A stretch of DNA of 64,000 bases from Candidatus Limnocylindria bacterium (GCA_036556695.1 DATBIY010000006.1:22231-86230), one strand, 5' to 3'. Shown: positions 4,319 through 18,206, numbered from the stretch's first letter. Numbers and translations: made by a program. Notes: generated by a model not told the origin, from the letters alone.

Positions 4319-7132
4319 TCAGTCGACGCTGAGCGGGACCAGTGGCGGTTCAGCGGTGCTCGGGGCTCCGATCGTGAAGGCGGCCCCGACCGGTCGCGGG
4401 TCGAGGCGGACCAATGCGTCCTGCGGCGACGCCAGGCTGTCCAACGCCCAGGCGGCGACCTCGTCGTCGTGGGTGAACAGGACCACCTGGCGCTCGCCGC
4501 TGATGGCGTGGAGGACGTCGAGCAGCTGGCGCTTGCGCTCCCCGTCGCACTGCGCGGTCACCTCGTCCAGCAGCAGCGGCGCACGCTCGCCGGTGCTGAC
4601 CAAATGCTCCGCCATCGCCACCCGCAGCAGCAGGTAGACCTGCTCACGCGTGCCTTCCGACAGGTACCTTGCGTCCCGCCACTGGCCTGTGGCGCTTTCC
4701 TTCACGCGGACGTGGAGCGAGGCAGGGTCGACGCTGACCTCCACGTAGGCGCCTCCGGAGACGACCGGCAGCCAGCGCAGGACGGCACGCGCCAGGACAG
4801 GCGCCAGGTCGCGATGCACCCGCTCCTGCGCCGCGCGCAGCAGACCGAGGGTGGTGTCGATGGTTGCGGCAAGGCCCTCGACGCGCTCGAGCTCGCGTTG
4901 CGCGGCGTCGGCTGCCTCCTCGGCCTCGGCCACGTCCGGAAGGGCGGCGCGCTGGGCGTCGAGGGCGCCGCGGGCCACGTCATGCTCGCGTTCCAGCTGC
5001 TGCGCCTCGCGGCGCAGTGCAGCCAGGTGCTCGTCCGACTGGACGCCAGTGGGCAGGGCGATGGCCTCCGCCGCCAGGGCCGCGGCCAGCTCATTCGCGC
5101 GCTGCCGGCGCCGCTCCGCGTCCCCCTGCAGGTCGGCCAGACTTCCGCCGTCCAACAGGGCCTGGAGCTGCTGCCACTCGGCAAGGGCTCGCTGATTGGC
5201 CTGCAGCGCGCCGCTGCGCTCCTCCCGCCAGTGCTCGACGGCGGCGCACAGCTGCTCGGCATCGGTTGCGGTGATCTCAAGCTCGGCGGCAACGGCCCGC
5301 AGCCGCTCCGCGGCCTCGTGGGCGCGGCGCCGAGCGGCGGCGGCGGCATCCTCGGCTGCGCGCCGCGCGTGCAGCTGGTGGCGCAGCGCCTCGGCGCGAT
5401 CGGCGAGGCGCTGCAGCGCGGAGCGGCTCTCGCAGGCGGCGTGATAGGTGGCGGCCGCCGCCGCCGGGTCCGCGTCGGCGGCCAGATCCTCTCCGCGGTC
5501 GCGCAGCGCGGCAGCGAGATCGTGGCGTGCGGTCAGCAGCTGCCCCTGCAGCTCGGCGTGCCGAGCCTCCCAGCGGATCAGCGCGTCGCGCTGCACGGCG
5601 ATCGCGGCCACGCGGTCGGCCAGCTCGGCGATGGCGGCTGCGTCCTCGGGCAGGCCGCTCGCCCGCGCGCGGCCAAGTGCCGCGTCGCGGCGCTCCGTGG
5701 CAGCCGCGCGCGCGCGGCGATACGGCTCGACGCTGGCCTCGGCGCGCGCCAGGGCGTCGGCGGTCGCGCGTGATCGCGAAAGACTCCAGGCGCCAGCCGC
5801 GCCCAGCGCCACGGCGAGCAGGGCAACTGCCACGGCTCCCGGCGCGCTGACCGCCACGAGCAGGCCCGCGGACACAATGGCAAGCAGGCAGGCGCCGCCG
5901 AACAGCAGCTGCGGCCGCGCCGCTGCCGAGCTGCCCCTGCGCAAGCCGGCCAGCTGCGCCTCGAAATCTGATGCCTCGGGAAGCGGCGCCTGCCCCAGAG
6001 TGGCAGCCAGCTCTCGAAGCGCCGGAGCATCCCAGCCGGGCGCGGGATTGGGCTCGACCGCGGGCCGGTCGCCGAGCAGGTGCAGTGCCTGGACGGCCAG
6101 GCTGACGGCGTGCTGTGCGGCCACGACCGACGGATGCGGACGCACATCGCCCGTCGGAGGCTGGGGCAGCGCATCGAGCTCGGCCTGCAGCGCATCCGTG
6201 GTCGGCCCCGACAGGTCGACGGCAGCCGGGCGGTTGCGGTAGCCATCCACCGCGGCCGCAGCACGTGCGGCCAGCTCATCACTGGCGGCCAACGTAGGCG
6301 GTGGTGCGGGGTGGCGAGCCTGCAGCTCGGCCGCTCGCGCGGCGCGGGCGCTTGCCTCCGCGGCCTGCATGCGCGCAACGGCTGCCTCGGCACCCGCCAG
6401 GCGAAGCCGCGCGGACTGGGCGGCGCGCTCGGACGACTCGACGGCAGCCGCCCGCTCAAGGAAGTCGGCGTGGGCCTGACGAGCCTGATCGTGAGCGGCA
6501 GCTGCGGCGGTCAGGCGGTTCCTGGCGGTGCGCAACGGCCCCTTGGCCGCCACGGTATCGGCACCCACCGCGTCACGCCGGAACTGCTCCAGGCGAGCAA
6601 TGGCCTCCGCCGCGGTGACGTCCGCCCCGTGGGTGGCCGCGGCGCGCTGCATGTGCTCCTGCAGGCCTTCGGCCGCATCTGCCACTGCCATGATCTGGGC
6701 CTGGCTGACGCTGACGGTCGTGGCGAACGAATCGCGATCCAGGCCGAGCCAGCGGGAGGCGTCCGGCGTGCCGTCCAGGATCTCGTCCGACACGTCGCGG
6801 CCGAGGTCGACATCGACCGCGCGGCAGGCGACCTTGTTCGCCAGGTCCTGGGTGACGTCGATGGTCCTGCCGTCGTCAAGCTGCATGCGCGCCTCCACCT
6901 CCCAGCGATCCGGCTGATCCCAGGGCTTGTGGCGCAGCGCCAGCTCACGCTCGACGGCGGTGCCCGGGCCCTTGCCGCGCCGAAGGCCGGTGATGGCCAG
7001 CCGCAGCGCGGCGTGCCACGAGGACTTGCCGGACTCGTTGGGACCGGCGATGACCGTCAATCCAGGAGCCAGATCCAGCGTCTCGTTCTGGAACGGCCCG
7101 AAGGCGCGGGCCACGACCCGCTGGATGCGCAT
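4319..7132 (-). CDS. sbcC: SbcC/Rad50-like SMC-family ATPase (double-strand-break repair)
   Basis: N-terminal Walker A (GPNESGKSS), a long Ala/Arg-rich coiled coil and a C-terminal signature/Walker B (LLLDEVTAQCD...VVLFTHD). Sits directly downstream of an SbcD-like gene. Confidence 0.8.
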   Translation of the reverse strand: MRIQRVVARAFGPFQNETLDLAPGLTVIAGPNESGKSSWHAALRLAITGLRRGKGPGTAVERELALRHKPWDQPDRWEVEARMQLDDGRTIDVTQDLANKVACRAVDVDLGRDVSDEILDGTPDASRWLGLDRDSFATTVSVSQAQIMAVADAAEGLQEHMQRAAATHGADVTAAEAIARLEQFRRDAVGADTVAAKGPLRTARNRLTAAAAAHDQARQAHADFLERAAAVESSERAAQSARLRLAGAEAAVARMQAAEASARAARAAELQARHPAPPPTLAASDELAARAAAAVDGYRNRPAAVDLSGPTTDALQAELDALPQPPTGDVRPHPSVVAAQHAVSLAVQALHLLGDRPAVEPNPAPGWDAPALRELAATLGQAPLPEASDFEAQLAGLRRGSSAAARPQLLFGGACLLAIVSAGLLVAVSAPGAVAVALLAVALGAAGAWSLSRSRATADALARAEASVEPYRRARAAATERRDAALGRARASGLPEDAAAIAELADRVAAIAVQRDALIRWEARHAELQGQLLTARHDLAAALRDRGEDLAADADPAAAAATYHAACESRSALQRLADRAEALRHQLHARRAAEDAAAAARRRAHEAAERLRAVAAELEITATDAEQLCAAVEHWREERSGALQANQRALAEWQQLQALLDGGSLADLQGDAERRRQRANELAAALAAEAIALPTGVQSDEHLAALRREAQQLEREHDVARGALDAQRAALPDVAEAEEAADAAQRELERVEGLAATIDTTLGLLRAAQERVHRDLAPVLARAVLRWLPVVSGGAYVEVSVDPASLHVRVKESATGQWRDARYLSEGTREQVYLLLRVAMAEHLVSTGERAPLLLDEVTAQCDGERKRQLLDVLHAISGERQVVLFTHDDEVAAWALDSLASPQDALVRLDPRPVGAAFTIGAPSTAEPPLVPLSVD

Positions 7133-7133
7133 C

Positions 7134-8228
7134 TCAGGCGACCTCCAGGTCCGGCCGGCCCTCGAGGGCGCGCAGCCCGGTCAGCACCACGCGACGCCGC
7201 GTGTCGGGGTCGGTGATGGACTCCATGGCATCGCGCACGAACTGTCCGCGCACCGTCTGCTCGGCGGCGATGGCCTCGACGTCATGGCCGATGCGGATCT
7301 CGCCGGCGCGGATCACCAGCCCGTCGAGGTGCTCGCCCAGGCGCTGCAGCTCGGCGATGTCGAGCGCCATGCCGGGTGCCAGCTCTCCCTGCAGCGTGAC
7401 TCGCACGCAGCCGGCCAGGCCGGCCAGGGCATCGCTGACGATCCCCGCCAGCTCGGTGGCGTGGCGCGCATCGTCGATGGCCACCAGCACGTCGTGCACC
7501 TCGCTGACCGCGACCCGGCGCCGCTCGCGGATGACGCTGCCGTCGGCCGACACCGTCACCAGGACGGCGCCGCGCTCCCCCTCCTCGCCGAACTCGAGCG
7601 GGTCTGGGTTGCCCGGATAGGTATGGCGCTCCGCGTCGCGCGGCAGGTGGTAGTGGCCCAGGAACGCATGGCTGATGCCGGCCGCCGGCAGCTCTGCCGC
7701 ATCGAACGGGGCGTGCGGCTGCTTCCCCTCCTCCTGCCAGCCGAGCAGGCTGCGCTCCGAGGCGTGGGCCAGGGCCAGGTGCACGCCGCCACGATCCGGG
7801 CGGAAGCCAGCGAAGAAGCCATCGGTGTTGGCCGGCGCGCGGTGTGCGGCACCCCACAGGGTCAGCCCATCGGCCAGGGGGAACGGGGTGAGCCGCGCCT
7901 CGGTGAAGAGATGGACGTTCGGCGACCAATCGGTCAGCAGGTATGGACTGCGAGGAGAGAGCCAGTCGTGGTTGCCCGGCGCCAGGAACACCGGTCGGCT
8001 CGTTGCGGCCAGCGCGTCCTGCAGGAATGCGACGGTATCCGGCGTCACCCGGTCGTGCTCGAACAGGTCGCCGGCGCAGAGGATGGCGTCGACCGCCTCC
8101 TCCTCGGCCAGCCGGATGATGTGCTGCAGCGCGACGCGCCGGTTGTTGCGACGTTTGCGCGCGGTTTCGGGCCGTGCCCAGGCGAATGGAGCGTCGAGGT
8201 GCAGGTCGGCAAAGAGAACGAGCTTCAC
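7134..8228 (-). CDS. sbcD: SbcD/Mre11-like metallophosphoesterase nuclease
   Basis: Calcineurin-like motifs DLHLD, GDLFEHD, GNHD and HxH. Its stop lies 2 nt before the sbcC start. Confidence 0.8.
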   Translation of the reverse strand: MKLVLFADLHLDAPFAWARPETARKRRNNRRVALQHIIRLAEEEAVDAILCAGDLFEHDRVTPDTVAFLQDALAATSRPVFLAPGNHDWLSPRSPYLLTDWSPNVHLFTEARLTPFPLADGLTLWGAAHRAPANTDGFFAGFRPDRGGVHLALAHASERSLLGWQEEGKQPHAPFDAAELPAAGISHAFLGHYHLPRDAERHTYPGNPDPLEFGEEGERGAVLVTVSADGSVIRERRRVAVSEVHDVLVAIDDARHATELAGIVSDALAGLAGCVRVTLQGELAPGMALDIAELQRLGEHLDGLVIRAGEIRIGHDVEAIAAEQTVRGQFVRDAMESITDPDTRRRVVLTGLRALEGRPDLEVA

Positions 8229-8304
8229 GCCTTCGAAGGGTAGCGAAGGTCGTGACAGCTAGGCCGTCGCAATCGACAGGCCCGAGAAGAACCTCAGAGG
8301 CTCA

Positions 8305-8448
8305 GTTGCGCGACTCGCGCTCGTTCACCAGCTGGATAACCAGCAGCACCGCCGCCACCACCAGCAGCAGGTTGACCAGCGCCCCGAACTGCAGCAGCAG
8401 GCCGAAGAACCATGCCAGCAGCGCAATGGCGATGAGCGTCCAGATCAT
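8305..8448 (-). CDS. Small membrane protein (lmo0937-like family, about 47 aa)
   Basis: Read from the reverse complement as MIWTLIAIALLAWFFGLLLQFGALVNLLLVVAAVLLVIQLVNERESRN. Overlaps the next small gene by 4 nt (ATGA). Confidence 0.5.
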
Positions 8449-8564
8449 TTGATCAGCAGCCAGCCCAGCCCCATGACGGCGGCCATCACCGCAACGCCGG
8501 CAAGGGCCACCCCGGCGGACAGGATGGCGATGGATGCCCCTGAAGGCCCACGCAGCGCGCTCAT
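8445..8564 (-). CDS. Small hydrophobic membrane protein (about 39 aa)
   Basis: Read from the reverse complement as MSALRGPSGASIAILSAGVALAGVAVMAAVMGLGWLLIK. Translationally coupled between Bcp and the lmo0937-like gene. Confidence 0.4.
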   Translation of the reverse strand: MSALRGPSGASIAILSAGVALAGVAVMAAVMGLGWLLIK

Positions 8565-9031
8565 GCGGCGAGGGCGTCCATCAGCAGGTCCACATGCTCC
8601 ATCGGCTTCACACGCTCCAGCACGTGCTCGATTCTGCCATCCGGACCGATGACGAAGCTCGATCGTTCGACGCCCATGTAGGTGCGCCCCATGTACGTCT
8701 TCTCGACCCAGACGCCGTAGGCATCGGCCACGGCATGCCCCGGATCCGATAGGAGCCGATACGGCAGGGCGTACTTCTCGCGGAACTTGACGTGGCTCTT
8801 CACGGGGTCCGGCGAGACGCCGAACACCTCGACACCGGTGCTCATGACACGCTCGAAGTTGTCGCGCATCGAGCATGCCTGGGCGGTGCAGCCGGGCGTG
8901 TCGTCCTTGGGATAGAAGTACAGGACGTAGCGCTTCCCGAGCTGGCTCATGCGGCTGACGGTCGACCCGTCATCGGCCTGCAGGCTGAAATCCGGGGCGT
9001 CCTCGCGCGGCCGTGGCTTCACGAATTCCAT
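8561..9031 (-). CDS. bcp: Thioredoxin-dependent peroxiredoxin Bcp
   Basis: FYPKDDTPGCTAQAC active-site motif. The track ORF extends to 9268 but the real start is MEFVKPRP at 9031, because the upstream hydrolase gene ends at 9033. Confidence 0.85.
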   Translation of the reverse strand: MEFVKPRPREDAPDFSLQADDGSTVSRMSQLGKRYVLYFYPKDDTPGCTAQACSMRDNFERVMSTGVEVFGVSPDPVKSHVKFREKYALPYRLLSDPGHAVADAYGVWVEKTYMGRTYMGVERSSFVIGPDGRIEHVLERVKPMEHVDLLMDALAA

Positions 9032-9032
9032 G

Positions 9033-10016
9033 CTACTGCAGCGTGCCGCCCATCTCCTCGATAGCCACCAGCACCGGCGGCAGGTCAACCACGCTGATCC
9101 GATCGGCCAAATCCGCGGCCACCTCGGCCAGGAGGCTGTCCGGCGCCTCGGCCAGGTCATGAGCGGCATCCGGGATGACGCGCATGGAAGGCCGATTGCC
9201 CCCGCCGCGCAGCGCTTCGGCCAGGAGTGCGGACTCATCCGGGTGCGACCACCGGTCCTCCGCCCCATGAAAGAGCGCCACGGACCGATGGAGCATGGTC
9301 GCCAGTGCGAGCGGCGGCGTGTGGATCGCCTGCTCGGTGCCGGCCAGGCTCAGGGTCAGTGGCCCGTCGGGCATCCGCAGCTCGATGCTCTGCTCTCGCC
9401 GCTCGGCGCGCTCGATGAGCTCCTCTGACCGCGCGTCCAGCGCCGCGACCAGCGGGTGCTGCCGATCGGTGCCGTCGCGGTCCCGGGCCGCCACGCCGCG
9501 CCGGAAGACGTCGCGCCAGGAGCGCGCCGATGCCCCGATCAGCGCCAGGGCGCTCACCGCCGGATCGCTGATGGCCACGCTCAGGGCCAGGGTGGCTCCC
9601 TCCCCGTGACCGACGATCGCGGTGCGCCGCAGGTCGAGCGCGGGCTGCGAGCGCATGGCCGCCAGCATGTCGCGGGCATCGTCGATGCGAGTGAACAGCG
9701 CCGCTTCCTCCCACACGCCTTCAGATGTCCCGCAACCCCGCGGGTCACAGCGCAGGCTGGCGACGCCCGCATCTGCCAGCGCGATGGCCAGGCGGCCCAG
9801 CAGCCCGCGCTCCCGCTCCGCAACGGCCTGCGGCGCGAACCAGGCCGCATGGGCGGTACGGTCCCAGGCGCCGTCCCGATCACGCGGCAGCCAGGACGGC
9901 AGCAGCAGCGCCGCCGGGTAGCGGCCGCGCTCGTCGGGCGGCGCATCGGGGAGGGTCAGCGTGCCGGCCAGCGTCGCGTCGCCAGCCGTGACTGCCAGCC
10001 CTTCAGATCGGCTCAC
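9033..10016 (-). CDS. Alpha/beta-hydrolase fold protein
   Basis: HGxG-like stretch (IVGHGEGATLAL) and overall alpha/beta-hydrolase layout. Specific function unknown. Confidence 0.6.
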   Translation of the reverse strand: MSRSEGLAVTAGDATLAGTLTLPDAPPDERGRYPAALLLPSWLPRDRDGAWDRTAHAAWFAPQAVAERERGLLGRLAIALADAGVASLRCDPRGCGTSEGVWEEAALFTRIDDARDMLAAMRSQPALDLRRTAIVGHGEGATLALSVAISDPAVSALALIGASARSWRDVFRRGVAARDRDGTDRQHPLVAALDARSEELIERAERREQSIELRMPDGPLTLSLAGTEQAIHTPPLALATMLHRSVALFHGAEDRWSHPDESALLAEALRGGGNRPSMRVIPDAAHDLAEAPDSLLAEVAADLADRISVVDLPPVLVAIEEMGGTLQ

Positions 10017-10070
10017 CCCGGAAGGGTACGGGTCGGCGTCACGCTGCGCTGTGCTCGCGCCGGCTCGGCG

Positions 10071-11675
10071 TCAGCCGGGGCGCGGACCAGGAGCGGAGCG
10101 ATCGGCCAGGATCTGGCCCGCGGCCAGCCGGCCGGGCGCGCCCATCACGCAGCCGCCGGGATGCGTGCCCGAGCCACATTGGTAGTAGCCGTGCAGCGGC
10201 GTGCGGTACTGCGACCAGCCCGGCGCGGGGCGGAAGAAGAACATCTGCGGCGCCAGGAACTCGCCGGCGAAGATGTTGCCCTCCGACAGGCCGGTGACGC
10301 GCTCGATGTCGAGCGGCGTGACCACCTCGCGCTGCAGGACCAGCTCGCCGAAGCCGGGGAAGAAGCGCTCCAGGGTGGCCTGCACCCGATCGGCCATCGG
10401 CTCACGCTGCGTGTCCCAGTCGGATTCGCGCAGGTGGTAGGGCGTGTACTGCACGAAGCACGACAGCACGTGGTTGCCGGGCGGCGCCATGTCGGGGTCG
10501 ATGGTCGACTGGATGGCGCAGTCGATGTACGGATCCTCGCTGAACCAGCCGTACTTGGCAGCGTCGAAGGCGCGCTCCACGTAGTCCATCGATGGGCCGA
10601 TGTTCAGGAAGCCGCGGTACGGCTCTGGCCCGTTGCCCAGCGTCGGGTGGGTGGGCAGCCCCGAGAGCGCGAAGTTGACCTTGGAGCTCACGCCCTGGAA
10701 CTTCATGCGGCGGATGTCCTCCGCCAGGTCGTCGGGGAGCTCCCGCGGGTCGACCAGCTCCAGGAAGGTGCGCCGCGGGTCGAGTGCGCTCACCACCACG
10801 TCGGCAGAGATCTCGGTGCCGTCGGCCAGCGCCACGCCGGTCGCCTCGCCGTCGCGGGTGATGACGCGCTCGACCGGTGATTCCAAGCGAATCTCGGCAC
10901 CGAAGGACTGCGCCGCGCGGGCCAGCACCTGCGTGAAGCCGCCGTTGCCGCCTTTGTGGAAGGCCCACGTGCCGAACGAGCCGTCGTGCTCGCCCAGCGA
11001 GTGGAACAGGAGCACCAGCCCCGAGCCCTGCGACCGCGGCCCGACCTTGGAACCGATGATCCCCGACGAGGCCAGCCAGCCCTTGAGCAGGTCCGACTCG
11101 AAGTAGTCGTCCAGGAAGTCGGCCGCGCTGCCGGTGAGCAGCCGCACGGCGTTGTGCAGCGTCCGCTTGTCCAGCGAGCGCAGCCGCGAGCCGAGTGCCG
11201 TCAGCCGCACCAGCTCCTCCGGATCGTCGCTGAACGGGTCCGGCGGCACCATGTCGAGCAGCGGCTTGATGGCCTGGCACACGCGATCCAGGTCGTGCTC
11301 GTACTGGTCGTAGGCGTCGGCGTCGTGCGGCGAGTGGCGGATGATCTCGCGCAGGTTCTCGTCATGGTCGCGGCTGAAGAGCAGGTACTCGCCGTCCTCG
11401 CCGGGCGCGAAGCGAGTGCTCATCAGCAGCGGCAGGAACCCGTGCTCCGTCAGCTCCAGCTCGTGGATGATCTGCGGCCGCAGCAGGCTGAGCGCGTAGC
11501 TGAAGGTGGTGAACCAGAAGCCGGGGCGCAGCTCCTCGGTGATCGCCGCCCCGCCCACCAGATGTCGCCGCTCCAGGATCAGCGTCTTCAGGCCGCCGCG
11601 CGCCAGGTAGGCGCCGTTCACCAGCCCGTTGTGGCCGCCGCCGATCACGATGGCGTCGTAGCGCTCCTGGCTCAT
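10071..11675 (-). CDS. Phytoene-desaturase-family (CrtI-like) FAD-dependent oxidoreductase
   Basis: N-terminal dinucleotide-binding motif DAIVIGGGHNGLVNGAYLARGG; 534 aa, as expected for the CrtI/amine-oxidase superfamily. Confidence 0.75.
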   Translation of the reverse strand: MSQERYDAIVIGGGHNGLVNGAYLARGGLKTLILERRHLVGGAAITEELRPGFWFTTFSYALSLLRPQIIHELELTEHGFLPLLMSTRFAPGEDGEYLLFSRDHDENLREIIRHSPHDADAYDQYEHDLDRVCQAIKPLLDMVPPDPFSDDPEELVRLTALGSRLRSLDKRTLHNAVRLLTGSAADFLDDYFESDLLKGWLASSGIIGSKVGPRSQGSGLVLLFHSLGEHDGSFGTWAFHKGGNGGFTQVLARAAQSFGAEIRLESPVERVITRDGEATGVALADGTEISADVVVSALDPRRTFLELVDPRELPDDLAEDIRRMKFQGVSSKVNFALSGLPTHPTLGNGPEPYRGFLNIGPSMDYVERAFDAAKYGWFSEDPYIDCAIQSTIDPDMAPPGNHVLSCFVQYTPYHLRESDWDTQREPMADRVQATLERFFPGFGELVLQREVVTPLDIERVTGLSEGNIFAGEFLAPQMFFFRPAPGWSQYRTPLHGYYQCGSGTHPGGCVMGAPGRLAAGQILADRSAPGPRPG

Positions 11676-11699
11676 CGGTCCATGCTCCTTCGGTCCATC

Positions 11700-12899
11700 T
11701 CAGGCGGTCTTGCGCTCAGGGTTGAAGAACGGCAGCCGCGCGACGTGCGCCGCCACCTGCTGGTAATGGTGGTCCACCGTGAACTCCAGGAAGACGCGGC
11801 TGCCGGGCTTCGCCAGGTCGGGACGCACGCGAGCGAGGGCGATGTGCCGCTGCAGGATCGGCGAATACATGATGCTCGTCGCATAGCCGACGCGGGACCG
11901 ATCGGCGTCGTAGACCATCCAGTCCTCGTGCACCGGCCGGTGGTCCTTGGGCGGGATGAGGCCTGCGGCGGTGTACACCCGCTCGTAATCCTGCCAGTCG
12001 ACCACCAGACCCACCATGCGCCAGCGGCTCGTCTTCTCGGCGCGTTCGCCCAACAGCGCCTTGCGGCCGATGAACGGCCGGTCGTCCTCCTCCAGCCCCT
12101 TGAACATCCACGCCCAGCCCAGCTCCAGGGGCGTCGAGCGATGCGCGTCGTTGAAGGCGAAGCGGCTGGAGTCGAAGTCGGCGCCCAGCAGCAGCAGGCC
12201 GGCCTCGATGCGCAGCATGTACAGCGCCCCCATGCCGTAGGCCAGCACGCCGAAGCCCTCGGCCGCATCCCAGATGGCGTCCCACACGGCGAGCGCGTCC
12301 GGCGTGTCGACCCAGACCTCGTACCCCAGGTCGCCGGTGTATCCGGTGCGGCTGATGGTCACCTTCCTGCCGCCGATGGTTCCCGTCGTGAGGCCGAAGA
12401 ACGGCAGCTCCCGGGTCTCCGGCACCAGGCGGGTCAGCAGGTCGCGCGAGCGCGGCCCCTGGATGGCCAGCGCGCCGATGTCCAGGCTCACCTCCTCGAT
12501 GGATACGTCCAGTCCGCCGATGCGGTCGGCGAACCAGGCGTAGTTCGGCTCGGCCGCGGTCAGCAGGTACTCGTCGGCCGCGCGGTGCTGGATGACGCCG
12601 TCCTCCAGCACGAAGCCGCGGTCATCCAGCCAGGTGGTGTAGTGGGCGTGGCCAGGCGGACATGTGCGGATGTCGCGGGCCAGCATGCCGGACAGGAAGC
12701 GCTCCGCGTCGCGGCCGGTGATCCGGTACTTGTACAGCGGGGAGGTGTCGAAGATGCCAGCGCTGTTGCGCACCGCGAAGTACTCGAACTTGTCCGACGA
12801 CTGGTAGCGGGTCACCACCAGGTGGCCCGACCAGTGCTGCCACAGGCCGGTCTGGTTGAGCGCGCTCGTCCGCTCGTGGAACGGCGTCGTCCGGATCAT
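11700..12899 (-). CDS. Aminomethyltransferase-family protein (GcvT-like, folate-dependent)
   Basis: Similar to GcvT and the C-terminal domain of DMGO/sarcosine oxidase over the full length. Its start is 25 nt downstream of the ecfT stop. Confidence 0.7.
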   Translation of the reverse strand: MIRTTPFHERTSALNQTGLWQHWSGHLVVTRYQSSDKFEYFAVRNSAGIFDTSPLYKYRITGRDAERFLSGMLARDIRTCPPGHAHYTTWLDDRGFVLEDGVIQHRAADEYLLTAAEPNYAWFADRIGGLDVSIEEVSLDIGALAIQGPRSRDLLTRLVPETRELPFFGLTTGTIGGRKVTISRTGYTGDLGYEVWVDTPDALAVWDAIWDAAEGFGVLAYGMGALYMLRIEAGLLLLGADFDSSRFAFNDAHRSTPLELGWAWMFKGLEEDDRPFIGRKALLGERAEKTSRWRMVGLVVDWQDYERVYTAAGLIPPKDHRPVHEDWMVYDADRSRVGYATSIMYSPILQRHIALARVRPDLAKPGSRVFLEFTVDHHYQQVAAHVARLPFFNPERKTA

Positions 12900-12924
12900 G
12901 CGGCGCGAGCATAGCGGTCCCGCG

Positions 12925-13722
12925 TCAGGAGAATAGGAAGCGCCAGCTCCCCAGCGCCAGGCTGATCCCCACCGCCAGCAGTGCCAGCGCCACGGCGCCC
13001 GCCAAGAGGAGCCAGTCGGCCTGGCGCACCCCCTCCTCGCGCGCTGAGCTGCGGCATTGGCGGGCGCCGAAGCCGCGCGCCTCCATGGCGGTGGCCAGCC
13101 TCGTCCCGCGCCGCACCGAGCCGATGAGCAGCGCCACCAGCTTCCCGAAGAAGACGCGCACCGTGCCCAGCATGCCCTGCCCGCTCGCGCCGCGAGCGCG
13201 CCGCGCCAGCGACAGGATCTGCCAGTCGAGCGCCAGGATCGGCATCAGCCGCGCGGCGGCCAGCGCGCCCACCGCGAAGCGCGGCGAGAGGCGCAGCTGC
13301 TGCACCAGCGAGTCGGCCAGGCGGGTGGGGTCGGTGGTGACCATGGCCAGCACGCCGGAGAAGGCGATTCCGGCCAGCCGCAGCCCCAGCCCGGCGGCCG
13401 ATGCCAGCGCCTCCGCGCTGACGTTCACGACGCCGATGCTGACCTGCGGCCCGCCCTGGGGCGCGCCGAAGATCACGTTCAGCACGCCCACCGACAGGGC
13501 GGTGAGCAGGATGGGCCAGGTGCGCCCGGCCAGCGTCCGCGGCGAGAGGCCGGACATGGCCACCGCCGCCAGCAGGCCCACGAGCACGACGCCGGCTGTC
13601 ACCAGGTCGACCGAGACGAACAGCGCGAGCATCAGGACCGTCGCAGCGGCCAGCTTGATGGCTGGGTTGGCTGCCGCCAGGAAGGCGCGCGGGTCGGGGC
13701 GCAGCGGCGTGAACAGCCTCAT
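12925..13722 (-). CDS. ecfT: ECF transporter transmembrane T component (EcfT/CbiQ family)
   Basis: Multi-pass membrane protein with the conserved R-rich loop ARGxGxR (LARRARGASG). Its start overlaps the stop of the ATPase gene. Confidence 0.75.
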   Translation of the reverse strand: MRLFTPLRPDPRAFLAAANPAIKLAAATVLMLALFVSVDLVTAGVVLVGLLAAVAMSGLSPRTLAGRTWPILLTALSVGVLNVIFGAPQGGPQVSIGVVNVSAEALASAAGLGLRLAGIAFSGVLAMVTTDPTRLADSLVQQLRLSPRFAVGALAAARLMPILALDWQILSLARRARGASGQGMLGTVRVFFGKLVALLIGSVRRGTRLATAMEARGFGARQCRSSAREEGVRQADWLLLAGAVALALLAVGISLALGSWRFLFS

Positions 13723-15233
13723 GGCGCGCTTCCGGTCGCACGGCTGAGACGGAGGGTGCGATCGGCCAGGACGCCCGCGAACTCGCGGTCGTGGGTGGCG
13801 AACACGATCGCCCGTCCCTGGTCGCGCAGCGCGGCCAGCAGGTCCAGGAGCTCGATGGCCGTGCGGCGGTCCTGCCCGAAGGTCGGCTCGTCAAGGATCA
13901 GGGCTGCCGGCGCGGCGGCCAGCGCGGTCGCAACGGAGAGGCGGCGCTTCTCTCCGCCGGAGAGGGTGAAGGGGTTGGCCGCCGCGAGGTGCTTCAGGTG
14001 GAGACGCTCCAGAAGCTCCGCGGCGCGGCGCGCGGCAGCCGGTCGCTCCACTCCGGCGCGCAGTGGCCCGAGCATCAGCTCGTCCTCGACCCTGCCGGTC
14101 AGGAACTGGTGCTCCGGGTCCTGGAAGACGGTGCCGATGTGGGTTGCCAGCTCGCGCGAAGGCCAGCCGGCCAGCGCGTCGTGGCCACGGCCGCGGGCCA
14201 GCGCCTCGCCGGCGACGACCGAGCCGCCGCTCGGGCGCAGCAGCCCGGCCAGCAGGAAGGCGAGGGTCGACTTGCCGCTGCCGTTCGGGCCGGTCACGGC
14301 CAGCGCCTCGGCGGATTTGACCTGCACGTCGGTCCGCGCCAGGGCCGGCACGCCGCTCCCCGGATACCGGAACTCGACCTGGTCGGCCATGATCAGCGTC
14401 TCGGACGACGGCCGCTCCCTGCGAGGAGGAGCCGGCAGACGTCGATCGGGCACCCACACGCCGGCATCGGCCAGGACGTCTCCGTACCGCGTGAAGACGT
14501 GGGATGCCGGCCCATCGGCCAGGATTGCGCCGTCCGCGTCGAGCGCGACAACCCTGTCGACCAGCGGCAGGGCGTCCGCCACGCGGTGCTCGACCATCAC
14601 CAGGGTGAGGCCCAGCCGCTCCACCACCCCGGCCACGATCTCCCGCACCAGGGCGGCGCCATCCGGGTCGAGATTGGCGGTGGGCTCGTCCAGCAGCAGC
14701 AGGCCAGGCCGCAGCGCCATGACGCCGGCGATCGCCAGGCGTTGCTGCTCGCCACCCGACAGCGCGTCAGTCGGGTGGTCGATGGGGTAGGCGAAGCCGA
14801 CGGCCGCCAGCGCGGCGTGTACCCGTGGCCAGATGGCGTCCGCGGGCAGGCAGCGGTTCTCGAGCCCGAAGGCCACGTCGTCCCCGGCGCGCGCCATGAC
14901 CAGCTGGCTCTCCGGGTCCTGGAACACCAGGCCGGTCGCGTCCCGCGCCTCGCGCGGTGGGCGGCCGTCGAGCGCCAGATTGCCCTTCTCGTCGCCGCCC
15001 TGGGGATCGAGCAGGCCGGCCAGGCCGGCCAGCAGCGTCGACTTGCCCGATCCGGAGGGGCCGACCAGAAGGACGCGCTCACCCGCCTCGATGCGCAGGT
15101 CGATGTCGTGCAGCGCCCACGCACGTCGACCCGGGTGGCGCCAGCCCCAGCCCTCCGCCTGGATGCTGACCGGCGCGGCCTCGGCCGGCGCCCCGGTCAG
15201 CTCACACCTCCGGTTGCTCTCTCCCGGCCGCAA
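13719..15233 (-). CDS. ecfA: ECF transporter duplicated ATPase (EcfA1-EcfA2 fusion)
   Basis: Two ABC cassettes, each with Walker A (GPSGSGKST; GPNGSGKST), signature (LSGGEQQR; LSGGEKRR) and Walker B (LLLDEPT; LILDEPT). The 5' end overlaps the ykoE-like gene by about 30 nt, so the start may be internal. Confidence 0.85.
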   Translation of the reverse strand: MRPGESNRRCELTGAPAEAAPVSIQAEGWGWRHPGRRAWALHDIDLRIEAGERVLLVGPSGSGKSTLLAGLAGLLDPQGGDEKGNLALDGRPPREARDATGLVFQDPESQLVMARAGDDVAFGLENRCLPADAIWPRVHAALAAVGFAYPIDHPTDALSGGEQQRLAIAGVMALRPGLLLLDEPTANLDPDGAALVREIVAGVVERLGLTLVMVEHRVADALPLVDRVVALDADGAILADGPASHVFTRYGDVLADAGVWVPDRRLPAPPRRERPSSETLIMADQVEFRYPGSGVPALARTDVQVKSAEALAVTGPNGSGKSTLAFLLAGLLRPSGGSVVAGEALARGRGHDALAGWPSRELATHIGTVFQDPEHQFLTGRVEDELMLGPLRAGVERPAAARRAAELLERLHLKHLAAANPFTLSGGEKRRLSVATALAAAPAALILDEPTFGQDRRTAIELLDLLAALRDQGRAIVFATHDREFAGVLADRTLRLSRATGSAP

Positions 15234-15786
15234 AGGCGTTCAGCACCCCGGCCTGCGCCAGGGCCTGCACCAGCGCCCAGGATCCCAGGCCGGCGATGAC
15301 CGCCGCGCTGACGCCCACCAGTGAGGAGTAGATGAGCTGCCAGTTCACGGCCCAGTCGGCATAGAAAAAGGCCAGGTCCAGCAGCGCGCCGGCCACGCCG
15401 GCAGCAGCACCGGCCAGGATCGCGACCGGCAGGCGCCATGAGCGGTACAGGCCGAAGGCGAACACCAGCTCGGCGGCAGCGCCCTGCGCCAGGCCGTACA
15501 CCACCGTCAACAGGCCCCACGGCGCGCCGAACAGCATCGAGATGACGGCAGCCGCCGTCTCGCCGTACAGCGCCGCGCCCGGTCGCCGGACGACCAACGG
15601 CACCAGCACCGCCGGTAGCATCCAGACCCCGTAGACCGCCCCGCGGACGGGCGGGAAGATGAACTCGGTCGCGTTCCACCACAGGTTCCACAGCTGGAAG
15701 ACCGCCCCGAAGGCAACGGCCAGCATCGACGCCACCACGATATCCACAACGCGCCAGCCAGACGGCTGCGCAGCCACACTCGTCAT
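15202..15786 (-). CDS. ykoE: ECF transporter S component, YkoE/ThiW-like (HMP/thiamine-specific)
   Basis: 194-aa polytopic membrane protein sitting between the TPK and ECF ATPase genes and downstream of a TPP riboswitch, as in ykoEDC-type operons. Confidence 0.65.
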   Translation of the reverse strand: MTSVAAQPSGWRVVDIVVASMLAVAFGAVFQLWNLWWNATEFIFPPVRGAVYGVWMLPAVLVPLVVRRPGAALYGETAAAVISMLFGAPWGLLTVVYGLAQGAAAELVFAFGLYRSWRLPVAILAGAAAGVAGALLDLAFFYADWAVNWQLIYSSLVGVSAAVIAGLGSWALVQALAQAGVLNAFAAGREQPEV

Positions 15787-16433
15787 GGGTGCATCTCTCC
15801 TTCCTCGAGCTGCTCCACGAGCAGCAGCATCCCCGCCTCCAGCCGTACCGAGGCCGGGGCAGACTCGACAACGTTCGACAGGCCGCGGCTGCTGCCCATG
15901 CGCAGCAGGTCATTGCTGAGCGCATAGCGCAGGCCTGCGGTGGTGACCCCGTTCGCGTCGCCGGCCACCGGGAAGAGACTGACCAGCGTTCCCGGCGGCG
16001 CGGTGATCTCTCGGGTCTCACCGCCGCGGATGGCAGCCAGCCGGGTGGGTCCGCAGACCAGCGTCATGCCGCCGGATCCATCGGCGCACAGCAGCAGCAC
16101 GTTGGCGACCTGGTGATCGATGCGGGGGCCGCCGAACGCGCCGAGCATCACCATTTCGTCGGCGCCCCTGCGCCGTGCAAAGTTCTGGGCGAGCTCCGCA
16201 TCCGAGTGGTCCTTCTCCGATGGATGGCGCTCGATCTCGACGCCCGCCGCCTCGTAGCGGCGCAGCAGCGCCGGCTCCACCGAATCGAGGTCGCCGACCA
16301 GGGCGTGCGGCAGGCGACCCTGGCGTTCGATCCAGTTCGCGCCGCCGTCGACGGCGACCAGCAGGTCGGCCAGGTCCAGCCAGCGTTCGTCGCCCAGATC
16401 CGGCTCGCCGGCGGCGACCAGGACCGCCCTCAT
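15783..16433 (-). CDS. thiN: Thiamine pyrophosphokinase
   Basis: TPK catalytic and thiamine-binding layout (VAVDGGAN...; C-terminal thiamine-binding domain). Start chosen at MRAVLVAAG (16433), which is preceded by a GGAGAAGGGAG Shine-Dalgarno, rather than the Arg-rich start at 16469. Confidence 0.7.
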   Translation of the reverse strand: MRAVLVAAGEPDLGDERWLDLADLLVAVDGGANWIERQGRLPHALVGDLDSVEPALLRRYEAAGVEIERHPSEKDHSDAELAQNFARRRGADEMVMLGAFGGPRIDHQVANVLLLCADGSGGMTLVCGPTRLAAIRGGETREITAPPGTLVSLFPVAGDANGVTTAGLRYALSNDLLRMGSSRGLSNVVESAPASVRLEAGMLLLVEQLEEGEMHP

Positions 16434-16524
16434 CAATCGCCGCTCCCTTCTCCCGCGGGCTGGTGGCATCTGCCGCCGAAGACGACGAATGGCGCGCCTC
16501 GCGGGCGCGCCATGCAGCGATTCA

Positions 16525-16615
16525 AACCGACTCCCTTCGCTGGCATGACCCAGATCAGGTTCGAGGGTCTGCGGCTCACCGCACTCTCAGCGCACCCGGC
16601 GCTCCCCTGTCGCTC
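16525..16615 (-). promoter_or_regulatory. TPP (THI-box) riboswitch aptamer, followed by a GC-rich expression-platform hairpin (16491-16511)
   Basis: Minus-strand read AGGGGAGCGCCGGGUGCGCUGAGAGUGCGGUGAGCCGCAGACCCUCGAACCUGAUCUGGGUCAUGCCAGCGAAGGGAG contains all the conserved THI-box blocks (GGGG.GCC, CUGAGA, ACCCU.GAACCUGAUCUGG.UAAUGCCAGCG.AGGGA). A perfect hairpin GGCGCGCC-cgcgag-GGCGCGCC plus a U-rich tail lies between the aptamer and the SD/ATG of the TPK gene. Confidence 0.85.
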
Positions 16616-16667
16616 TTCGGTTGTCCATCGAGCCTACCACCTGCCGCTGCGGGCCGCCAATCGGAAA

Positions 16668-17126
16668 TCAGGGGTGGGGAAGCCGCAGCTCCACGAGCGT
16701 GCCATGTCCCTCGGCATACATGTCCATCTGCAGCCGCTCGCCCTCCGGCGGACCGAATCGGAAGATGGCCACCCCGCCTCCGGGCCCTGCCAGGTCGACC
16801 TGGAAGCCGGCGGCGGGCAGCTCGTCCTCGTAGAAGGCGTACACCTCCGCCCCGTCGGCGTCGGTCCGCCACGCTGCGATCACGCTCGGATCGTCGGAGG
16901 TGACGGGCTGCATGCCGTCCATCAGCGGAAACCCGTCGGGAACCGGTGGCAGCTCGATCTGGGTGCTTGAGGCCGATGCGGTGGCGGCGCTCCCGCTGGG
17001 CGGCACCGTCGATGACGCAAGGCCGCTCGGCGTTCCACCGGCCGACCCATCGGCGCTGCTGGTGGCGACGCCGCACCCACAGAGGATTGCCAGCAGCAGC
17101 AATCCGGTGCGCCGAGAACCTGCCAT
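16668..17126 (-). CDS. Hypothetical lipoprotein
   Basis: Signal peptide with lipobox (LLAILCGCG) and a low-complexity S/A-rich linker. Confidence 0.5.
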   Translation of the reverse strand: MAGSRRTGLLLLAILCGCGVATSSADGSAGGTPSGLASSTVPPSGSAATASASSTQIELPPVPDGFPLMDGMQPVTSDDPSVIAAWRTDADGAEVYAFYEDELPAAGFQVDLAGPGGGVAIFRFGPPEGERLQMDMYAEGHGTLVELRLPHP

Positions 17127-17189
17127 GTGAACCTCCCTAAGACGAAACCGGCTGGCCTCGCGTCTGCGACGGCCAGCCGGCGTTGCTCG

Positions 17190-18206
17190 TTACTCGTTCA
17201 GGTTGGAGACGATGATCGGTACGTAGAACCCTCCCAGTGCGTCGTGGTCGAACCACCTCACGTTCTGCGCGGCCAGGTTGAATGTCTCGCGATAGCTGCC
17301 AGGGGGCGGGCCGCCGCGAATGCCGAAGGTGAATCGCCCGATGGCGTTCGGCGCGGTGGTGGCATCGACCCGGGTGGCGATCCAGGCATTCGTCCAGTCG
17401 GACGCTTCGAACGGGCTGTCGTGGCTGGCCGGATCCCAGGTGCCGAGGATCACGCGGCCAGCGGTCGACGTCCGCCAGGTGCGCCCGCCGGTGTTCCGGA
17501 ACTCGACCCAGTGGCTGATCGTCCGGCTGCGCCGCACGACCTGGGTGCCGGCGTTGCTCTCCCGGACGTACTCGGCCAGGAACGGCACGCGTCCCGGCCA
17601 GGTGGTCCACAGGCGGCGGTACATGGGGTCGATCTGCACGAAGTCCTCGCCGGCGACCAGCATCTCGAGGTGCAGGTGCGGGCCAAAGCAGTAGCCGCTG
17701 CATCCGGACTCGCCGACCTTCTCACCGGCAGCCACCTGGTCTCCACGCTTGACCGTCAGCCCGCCATCCGCACGGCTGGCGAGGTGGTAGTAGAGCGTGT
17801 CGCGGTCGTCGTCATGCGCCACTCGCACGAAGTTTCCGAAGTCGCCGTACTGCTGCGTGCCGTAGCCGCCCTCGGTGTCGATCACCTCCCCGTCGAGCGA
17901 CGCAGCGATCGGCGTATGCACCGGCATCGGGTAGTCGAGGCCGGTGTGGTTGTCGTACACACGCCCCGCATGCGGGACCGTGTCGAACCAGGTCTTTCCG
18001 GTGTAATCGAGCTGGAAGCCGATGCGCGGGTCGCGGTCGACGCCGTACAGCAGGCTGAACTCGGGGTTGTAGTACGGCAGGGTGTAGTCGTCCGCGGCCA
18101 GCGCCCGCGGCGCTGCCATCAGCGCCAACGCGGCGAATGTCAGCAGCGAGCCGAGTGCCAGCGGCATACGCGGCAGGTGGATGAGTCCAGTGCTCATGGT
18201 CCGCAC
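17190..18206 (-). CDS. M23-family (LytM-like) metallopeptidase, secreted
   Basis: Signal peptide. M23 motifs HxxxD (HTGLDYP) and HxH (GPHLHLEM). Confidence 0.75.
   Translation of the reverse strand: MRTMSTGLIHLPRMPLALGSLLTFAALALMAAPRALAADDYTLPYYNPEFSLLYGVDRDPRIGFQLDYTGKTWFDTVPHAGRVYDNHTGLDYPMPVHTPIAASLDGEVIDTEGGYGTQQYGDFGNFVRVAHDDDRDTLYYHLASRADGGLTVKRGDQVAAGEKVGESGCSGYCFGPHLHLEMLVAGEDFVQIDPMYRRLWTTWPGRVPFLAEYVRESNAGTQVVRRSRTISHWVEFRNTGGRTWRTSTAGRVILGTWDPASHDSPFEASDWTNAWIATRVDATTAPNAIGRFTFGIRGGPPPGSYRETFNLAAQNVRWFDHDALGGFYVPIIVSNLNE

Follow-up and report, generated by a model that had tools for sequence, protein, structure and literature searches.

Comparative analysis of a TPP riboswitch-headed thiamine operon and the adjoining GcvT-like/CrtI-like gene pair in Candidatus Limnocylindria

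In the THI-box ykoEDC operon of Bacillus subtilis, a thiamine pyrophosphate (TPP) riboswitch lies upstream of genes for YkoE (PF09819), the fused ATPase YkoD and the CbiQ-type protein YkoC, and YkoE is the thiamine-binding S component of the YkoEDC transporter (YkoE structure, PMC5037267). Dimethylglycine oxidase, heterotetrameric sarcosine oxidase and dimethylglycine dehydrogenase combine a flavoprotein with a GcvT-fold folate module in methylated-amine or betaine contexts, and the C-terminal tetrahydrofolate (THF) half of the trimethylamine N-oxide (TMAO) demethylase Tdm, like DmmD, would capture the one-carbon unit from demethylation. We analysed a stretch of 64,000 nucleotides (nt) of DNA (GCA_036556695.1, DATBIY010000006.1:22231-86230; hereafter the window), which the names on close homologues place in Candidatus Limnocylindria, Chloroflexota. 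On its minus strand, a riboswitch-headed operon with genes for thiamine pyrophosphokinase (TPK) and ykoEDC is followed at short distance by a gene for a GcvT-like protein and a gene for a CrtI-like flavoprotein, here called the pair, and then by genes for an alpha/beta hydrolase and Bcp.

An earlier reading of this DNA, made from the sequence alone (the sequence-only reading), had described the same minus-strand string with its short gaps, and profile matches bear out each gene at its place. It had further proposed that the thiamine operon runs on into the pair. Comparison with related loci leads us to another explanation, which we think probable: the string consists of four transcription units, and the pair is separate from thiamine.

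Synteny of the pair and the thiamine operon

The pair encodes a GcvT-like folate-binding aminomethyltransferase-family protein (11700-12899, minus strand; PF01571 and PF08669) and a CrtI/CrtO-like flavin adenine dinucleotide (FAD) flavoprotein of the amine-oxidase fold (10071-11675, minus strand; PF01593). The CrtI-like gene has its own Shine-Dalgarno sequence, GAAGGAG. From ykoC on, the gaps between the same-strand genes are 25 nt (ykoC/GcvT-like), 24 nt, 54 nt and about 0 nt.

An alignment of the GcvT-like subfamily served to fetch 80 species-level genome loci, in which all eight window proteins were then located by tblastn. In 76/76 loci with enough downstream sequence, the gene after the GcvT-like one is the CrtI-like gene, and their stop and start codons often overlap. 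TPK-ykoEDC is found upstream of the pair in only 21 of the 74 informative Limnocylindria species loci. The remaining 53 have the pair in unrelated surroundings at equal identity (75-89%, the range of the GcvT-like protein across Limnocylindria matches and loci). No thiamine genes flank the pair in any of these non-thiamine loci, and no TPP riboswitch was found within 10 kb of it in three of them scanned with Rfam. Wherever the thiamine operon occurs, Rfam finds the TPP riboswitch before TPK.

As a reciprocal test, YkoC was aligned against metagenome contigs, and about 54 of the loci obtained extend far enough beyond ykoC. The gene that follows is the GcvT-like gene in 5 of them; 19 have hydrolase-bcp directly, 13 have an opposite-strand DAO-family oxidoreductase gene and then hydrolase-bcp, and about 15 have unrelated genes there. 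The slot thus varies among relatives, and the conserved part of the thiamine operon ends with ykoC. Where the window arrangement recurs, synteny extends to SbcCD-like genes, a PIG-L gene and a penicillin-binding protein gene; such a pattern is what common ancestry produces and is not evidence of functional linkage. Within this clade, the gap between ykoC and the GcvT-like gene ranges from 10 to 188 nt. We consider it very probable that the pair is independent of thiamine. It would be an autonomous two-gene module that, in one Limnocylindria clade, came to lie between ykoC and the hydrolase gene.

The opposite-strand DAO-family FAD oxidoreductase gene occupies the ykoC/hydrolase slot in loci L105-L110, L112, L114, L117, L133, L139, L146 and L162, and Pfam was run on three such genes. 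In one example (L112 4709-6034, minus strand), the nearest NCBIfam families are soxB, MTOX and ThiO, all far below cut-off; ThiO was rejected for this gene (TIGR02352, 84 against a cut-off of 250.8). With the DAO-family gene in one clade and the pair in the window, different flavoenzymes have come to occupy the slot on at least two occasions.

Promoter-like boxes and transcription units

A simple scan of 8000-17500 reported no terminator-like and no sigma-70 consensus site, but promoter and terminator scans of this kind are uninformative in 70% GC DNA, and comparative analysis was used instead. The promoters described here are inferred from conservation and spacing. The sequences 5' of the GcvT-like ATG were aligned across all loci, and a GGTATGCTC-type box was found to be conserved 5' of the ATG in loci with and without thiamine context. 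In the window this is the -10-like box GCTATGCTC (12907-12915, minus strand), whose hexamer TATGCT (12908-12913) falls within the 25-nt gap, at a distance of 8 nt from the GcvT-like ATG (12899); no Shine-Dalgarno sequence precedes this ATG in the window. TANNNT occurs 8 to 9 nt 5' of the ATG in 37 of 88 distinct upstream regions, compared with a background of 0.9 per offset. Regions of this type have no Shine-Dalgarno sequence, and those with the box at 35 to 64 nt have GGAGG before the ATG. The extended motif GNTATNCTC was rejected as a general promoter word in the window, where it occurs once, about the number expected by chance (1.8), which is why the motif counts as evidence only through being conserved among orthologous loci.

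Similar boxes precede the next two genes. The hydrolase gene (9033-10016, minus strand; PF12146, PF00561) has the box TACCCT (10023-10028, minus strand) 6 nt before its GTG (10016), a proposed leaderless promoter. Of 53 distinct regions upstream of the hydrolase start, 46 have TANNNT at a distance of 5 to 8 nt (at 6 nt in 33 and at 7 nt in 12), whichever gene is upstream: CrtI-like, ykoC or the opposite-strand DAO gene. We predict that the hydrolase gene is a separate transcription unit. The gene for the Bcp/PrxQ thiol peroxidase (8561-9031, minus strand; NF006960, 162.5 bits, cut-off 140) could start at GTG 9022 or, alternatively, at ATG 9031. The box TAGCAT (9030-9035, minus strand) is located 7 nt before GTG 9022, and 26 of 27 relatives have TANNNT 6 to 7 nt before a start codon, which suggests that GTG 9022 rather than ATG 9031 is the start.

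In a uniform count, TANNNT was found near the start codon of the GcvT-like gene in 41/91 upstream regions, of the hydrolase gene in 46/53 and of bcp in 26/27. The control genes gave 0/46 (TPK), 0/31 (YkoE), 0/19 (YkoD), 0/95 (YkoC) and 0/79 (CrtI-like). Published work on high-GC bacteria gives TANNNT about 12 nt 5' of the start codon as the mark of leaderless genes (PMC3160421; PMC3898074; PMC4007540). We therefore read the minus-strand string as four predicted transcription units: riboswitch-TPK-ykoEDC, GcvT-like plus CrtI-like, hydrolase, and bcp. Transcription of the pair would start at its own conserved -10 box and give a leaderless or near-leaderless mRNA, and the hydrolase gene and bcp would each be under their own leaderless-type -10 box. 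That the pair has a promoter of its own we regard as likely, and the boxes of the hydrolase gene and bcp suggest widespread leaderless transcription in Limnocylindria.

Some features of the locus fit this explanation less well. The 25-nt gap between ykoC and the GcvT-like gene has no terminator, so some read-through from the thiamine promoter is likely. The GcvT-like box is 8 to 9 nt from the ATG, compared with 6 to 7 nt for the hydrolase gene and bcp, and the mRNA may therefore carry a leader of 1 to 3 nt. Moreover, just 41 of the 91 GcvT-like upstream regions have the box at this distance, and elsewhere it is farther away or absent.

A single riboswitch operon extending through the pair, and perhaps through the hydrolase gene and bcp, would explain why the genes are on one strand with gaps of 25-54 nt and no recognisable terminator. 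Under it, the pair would remodel a compound related to thiamine, hydroxymethylpyrimidine (HMP) or thiazole, and such a linkage might seem to be favoured by the fact that 21 species-level genomes, as well as several metagenome contigs, share the arrangement. The recurrent loci, however, are syntenic out to SbcCD and the penicillin-binding protein, which indicates relatedness rather than selection for linkage. The 53 species loci that have the pair elsewhere, the three among them scanned for the riboswitch, the 49 of about 54 thiamine operons without the pair, the conserved promoter-like box before the GcvT-like gene and the cross-phylum homologues in amine-catabolic clusters (see below) all argue against it as well, and we consider this operon very improbable. 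The sequence-only reading had proposed both that the operon runs on, which the conserved box and the synteny counts contradict, and that the pair serves salvage or remodelling of a thiamine- or HMP-related compound, which agrees neither with the lack of thiamine genes beside the non-thiamine loci nor with the amine-catabolic homologues. It had proposed co-occurrence of the pair with THI-box/ykoE as a check, and linkage was found in 21/74 pair loci and 5/~54 thiamine operons. As evidence that would speak against it, it had named beforehand a mapped terminator or an independent promoter between ecfT and the GcvT-like gene, or a lack of synteny with thiamine genes. In silico, an independent promoter-like box was found and the synteny was not conserved; the terminator was not found.

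Incidental read-through is a weaker form of coupling, compatible with the four-unit explanation and no true alternative to it. The pair would have its own promoter and a non-thiamine function, yet transcripts escaping the riboswitch terminator would cross the 25-nt gap, and expression of the pair, chiefly of the Shine-Dalgarno-bearing CrtI-like gene, would rise somewhat in thiamine limitation. Folding of the ykoC/GcvT-like junction gave no structure above chance (z = -0.02), and neither a terminator nor a stable structure lies between the two genes; gaps in the clade go down to 10 nt. On the other hand, a GcvT-like start without a Shine-Dalgarno sequence should translate poorly inside a long mRNA, and the spread of the gap (10-188 nt) and the different genes in the slot among relatives argue against selected coupling. 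We rate this as possible but rather unlikely. No riboswitch, whether for glycine, THF or another ligand, was detected 5' of the GcvT-like gene in Rfam gathering scans.

A conserved palindrome of the GCGACAGGTCGCGTGTCGCG type was observed 20 to 50 nt 5' of the GcvT-like ATG in loci L063-L065, L070, L074-L076, L079, L080, L082, L084, L086 and L090. It overlaps a -35-like TGACAG or CGACAG, located 17 to 19 nt 5' of a TACCGT or TAGGGT box, and is probably the operator of some repressor of the pair in that clade.

Relatives, genomic contexts and possible function of the pair

The GcvT-like protein is most closely related to the THF modules of Tdm and DmmD. Its best family match is the C-terminal part of Tdm (NF053776, 230 bits, model positions 385-759) and its best solved structure is PDB 9q5a (Tdm residues 407-783, E 7e-40). 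The folate domains of dimethylglycine oxidase/sarcosine oxidase-type enzymes are matched at E 1e-19 to 1e-23. Unlike Tdm and DmmD, the window's protein lacks an N-terminal DUF1989 half, is not accompanied by dmmABC genes and has a CrtI-like flavoprotein as its partner. The glycine-cleavage T protein proper was rejected as its identity (TIGR00528, 159 against 235.85; NF001567, 202.4 against 300), and neither gcvH nor gcvP is adjacent to the GcvT-like gene in any locus inspected.

The CrtI-like protein has an N-terminal FAD-binding Rossmann motif and a CrtI-type fold according to PF13450, PF01593 and Foldseek. The best Foldseek matches of its AlphaFold2 model are CrtD (4rep; template modelling scores 0.68/0.74) and CrtI (4dgk), followed by NicA2, monoamine oxidase and putrescine oxidase. 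It thus resembles the CrtI/CrtD/CrtO family (COG1233) in fold, in its FAD-binding N-terminus and in its best profile and structural matches; unlike that family, it scores below every curated cut-off (crtI_fam TIGR02734, 106.1 against 238.1; CrtO NF045689, 263 against 1000), has no carotenoid context and has a strict folate-protein partner. The PF01266 (DAO) match covers only residues 247-301, and the protein is not a DAO-type flavoprotein. Homologues below about 40% identity (from Sphingobium and others) have no GcvT partner, and the pairing therefore defines a subfamily and not the whole family. The CrtI/CrtD/CrtO family (COG1233) includes human PYROXD2, a possible relative of the CrtI-like protein and no more than a lead. 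Metabolite genome-wide association studies tie the human PYROXD2 locus to trimethylamine and dimethylamine levels (PMC3169529).

Like dimethylglycine and sarcosine oxidases, the pair couples a GcvT-fold module to a flavin amine oxidase-type protein, here genetically, in all 76 loci, and the coupling is kept in Alphaproteobacteria. Unlike these oxidases, the pair has a CrtI/PF01593-type flavoprotein in place of a DAO-type (PF01266) one, consists of separate polypeptides and lacks SoxD/SoxG partners. Because its flavoprotein is CrtI-type and not DAO-type, it is a member neither of the dimethylglycine oxidase/sarcosine oxidase families nor of the Tdm/DmmD families. A literature search (PYROXD2 with demethylase or trimethylamine; aminomethyltransferase with phytoene desaturase/dehydrogenase) returned no characterised example of the pair.

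In some other Limnocylindria, the pair lies beside a PotABCD-like ATP-binding cassette (ABC) transporter, a class-III aminotransferase similar to 4-aminobutyrate aminotransferase (GABA-AT) and a response regulator. In Alphaproteobacteria, the best plasmid-borne homologues of both proteins are co-located in 7 records (45-47% and 35-36% identity). Four of these seven clusters were inspected; they contain a TetR regulator, a class-III aminotransferase, two CrtI-like genes, an aminomethyltransferase, GbcA-like Rieske oxygenases, a polyamine-type ABC transporter and an OYE-family iron-sulphur flavoprotein, and are without thiamine genes. A Shinella plasmid has a 40%-identical CrtI-like gene and gcvT in a carnitine-type cluster with a BKACE enzyme and a 3-hydroxyacyl-CoA-dehydrogenase-like gene. 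One library/cluster representative (P0272, 816 amino acids (aa)) is a fusion, with a GFA domain (glutathione-dependent formaldehyde-activating, PF04828) at the N-terminus of a CrtI-like protein 43% identical to that of the window.

Further observations were made on these neighbourhoods. In loci L081, L085, L087 and L088, a divergent BetI-like TetR regulator (L087 9304-10044, minus strand) is found beside the pair, together with an ABC transporter, and the intergenic region has an AT-containing repeat, AACGATATTGCGCA...CCGATATCGTG. A second GcvT paralogue, 25% identical, also stands beside the pair (L087 7810-9024). The plasmid clusters in cultured Alphaproteobacteria come from Rhizobium sp. 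SL42 (L171), Fuscovulum ytuae (L172), Shinella zoogloeoides (L173), Parasedimentitalea marina (L176) and Shinella sumterensis (L178), and their tandem CrtI-like paralogues are 31% identical to each other's counterpart.

Kinship with Tdm and DmmD, the amine and betaine cluster contexts and the GFA fusion, taken together, lead us to read the pair as acting in the oxidative removal of a methyl group from an N-methyl amine. The N-methyl C-N bond of a methylated amine would be oxidised by the CrtI-family flavoprotein, and its GcvT-like partner would pass the one-carbon unit to THF as 5,10-methylene-THF. The class-III aminotransferase encoded beside the pair in other lineages could then act on the demethylated primary amine. 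For the pair being a THF-linked oxidative N-demethylase of methylated-amine catabolism we see about an even chance; the same chemistry, oxidative N-demethylation with one-carbon transfer to THF, had been proposed from the sequence, and it fits the amine-cluster contexts and the GFA fusion. More tentatively, the pair may represent a new two-component class of THF-coupled oxidative N-demethylase with a CrtI/COG1233 oxidising subunit, distributed from Chloroflexota to Alphaproteobacteria and acting on a methylated amine or a betaine-derived compound.

Three points weigh against this assignment. The GFA fusion rests on a single cluster representative, and the structural model is of moderate confidence (predicted local distance difference test, pLDDT, 69). 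To our knowledge, no CrtI-family enzyme acts in N-demethylation, and the characterised members that we know of act on carotenoid C-C bonds. The CrtI-like protein might instead be a carotenoid or isoprenoid desaturase or ketolase (CrtO-like), and its GcvT-like neighbour might have an unrelated or non-folate role, as could be supposed from the best family match, CrtO (263 bits), and from CrtD and CrtI as the best structural matches. Such an assignment, however, has to account for scores far under the cut-offs (263 against 1000 and 106 against 238), for the strict pairing with a folate-binding protein (76/76 loci), and for the amine and betaine catabolic contexts and the GFA fusion. No gene was identified as carotenoid-biosynthetic in the Limnocylindria or alphaproteobacterial neighbourhoods inspected. 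A carotenoid role is thus improbable.

The thiamine operon, neighbouring genes and implications

Rfam model RF00059 matches the TPP riboswitch aptamer (THI element) over its full length, positions 1-105; the match is on the minus strand at 16515-16618 and scores 67.2 bits (gathering score 54.3; E 4.9e-11). Its position in the leader of the thiamine genes is conserved, with a single TPP riboswitch immediately 5' of TPK in 18/18 related loci tested by Rfam. A promoter-like site for the riboswitch transcript was read from the sequence at 16631-16660 on the minus strand; it consists of TTGGCG (16655-16660), an 18-nt spacer and TAGGCT (16631-16636), and was not reported by the strict sigma-70 scan. 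The transcript start is predicted about 6 nt 5' of the aptamer.

The aptamer is followed by an expression platform of the intrinsic-terminator type (16476-16513, minus strand). It comprises a 10-bp GC hairpin, AUGGCGCGCC-CGCGA-GGCGCGCCAU (16489-16513), and next to it the tail UCGUCGUCUUCGG. When the whole leader is folded at minimum energy, aptamer sequence pairs with the hairpin's 5' arm; this alternative conformation is the alternative pairing expected for a terminator/antiterminator switch. A comparable hairpin with a U-containing tail follows the aptamer in 14 of the 18 related loci; of the others, three lack the terminator hairpin, with the aptamer abutting the TPK start codon, and one folds otherwise. 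TPP-dependent control through the terminator-like hairpin is thus predicted. The three relatives without the hairpin (L095, L118 and L121), in which the TPK start codon comes right after the TPP aptamer, suggest a shift from transcriptional to translational control within one orthologous riboswitch.

The first gene of the operon encodes TPK/ThiN (15783-16469, minus strand; TIGR01378, 144.9 bits, cut-off 76.4; PF04263 and PF04265), whose true start is probably ATG 16433, preceded by the Shine-Dalgarno sequence GAAGGGAG. It is followed by ykoE (15202-15786, minus strand; PF09819, E 3e-37) for the S component of an energy-coupling factor (ECF) thiamine transporter belonging to group I, ykoD (13719-15233, minus strand; two PF00005 domains; TIGR04520, 317.8 bits, cut-off 315) for a fused double ABC ATPase (EcfA-A'), and ykoC (12925-13722, minus strand; PF02361, E 5.6e-21) for the EcfT transmembrane component of the CbiQ family. 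The YkoD-type protein is 504 aa long with both PF00005 domains, and its start codon is uncertain. The three transporter genes overlap or abut one another; ykoE overlaps the TPK stop by 4 nt and ykoC overlaps the ykoD stop by 4 nt. S component, dedicated double ATPase and T component are hence encoded in one operon, as in YkoEDC, and the YkoE-type protein is a putative thiamine binder by analogy with its B. subtilis counterpart.

The promoter-like site would feed the riboswitch; with TPP bound, the GC hairpin would form and transcription would end before TPK-ykoE-ykoD-ykoC. When TPP is scarce, the importer would be made together with the kinase that turns imported thiamine into TPP. The gene order is like that of the B. 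subtilis operon. Unlike the latter, the window operon has no YkoF gene, has TPK as its first gene and has a U-poor terminator tail, and its host belongs to a high-GC Chloroflexota class. The thiamine operon is otherwise ordinary, a routine member of the THI-box/ykoEDC class. In this part of the locus the sequence-only reading holds: its THI-box with a GC terminator-type platform agrees with the RF00059 match and the conserved GC hairpin, and its riboswitch-headed thiamine salvage and uptake operon agrees with the assignment of all four genes and the riboswitch 5' of TPK in 18/18 loci.

Beyond bcp, a 39-codon open reading frame (MSALRGPSGASIAILSAGVALAGVAVMAAVMGLGWLLIK) at 8444-8563 on the minus strand overlaps the bcp stop in ATGA. 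A 39-aa gene is at the matching position in L006-L008, and behind it come genes for small membrane proteins (DUF5670) and SbcD/SbcC-like genes; in the window, the SbcD/SbcC-like genes are at 7134-8228 and 4319-7132.

The comparison has consequences for annotation, since a thiamine/HMP salvage step under riboswitch control is not upheld and a false pathway annotation is thereby avoided. It also gives clear comparative evidence that TANNNT boxes at leaderless spacing are in use in this uncultured Chloroflexota class of high GC content, and short same-strand gaps in Limnocylindria therefore do not indicate operons. For the pair itself, a strictly conserved cross-phylum module is now defined, found in amine and betaine clusters of cultured rhizobia and roseobacters. 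The alphaproteobacterial plasmid clusters appear to be an uncharacterised catabolic pathway open to genetics, through which the substrate could be found. If confirmed, the demethylase function would be a new variant of THF-coupled demethylase and the first amine-demethylating activity in the phytoene-desaturase family, and it might explain why the possibly related human PYROXD2 locus tracks methylamine levels.

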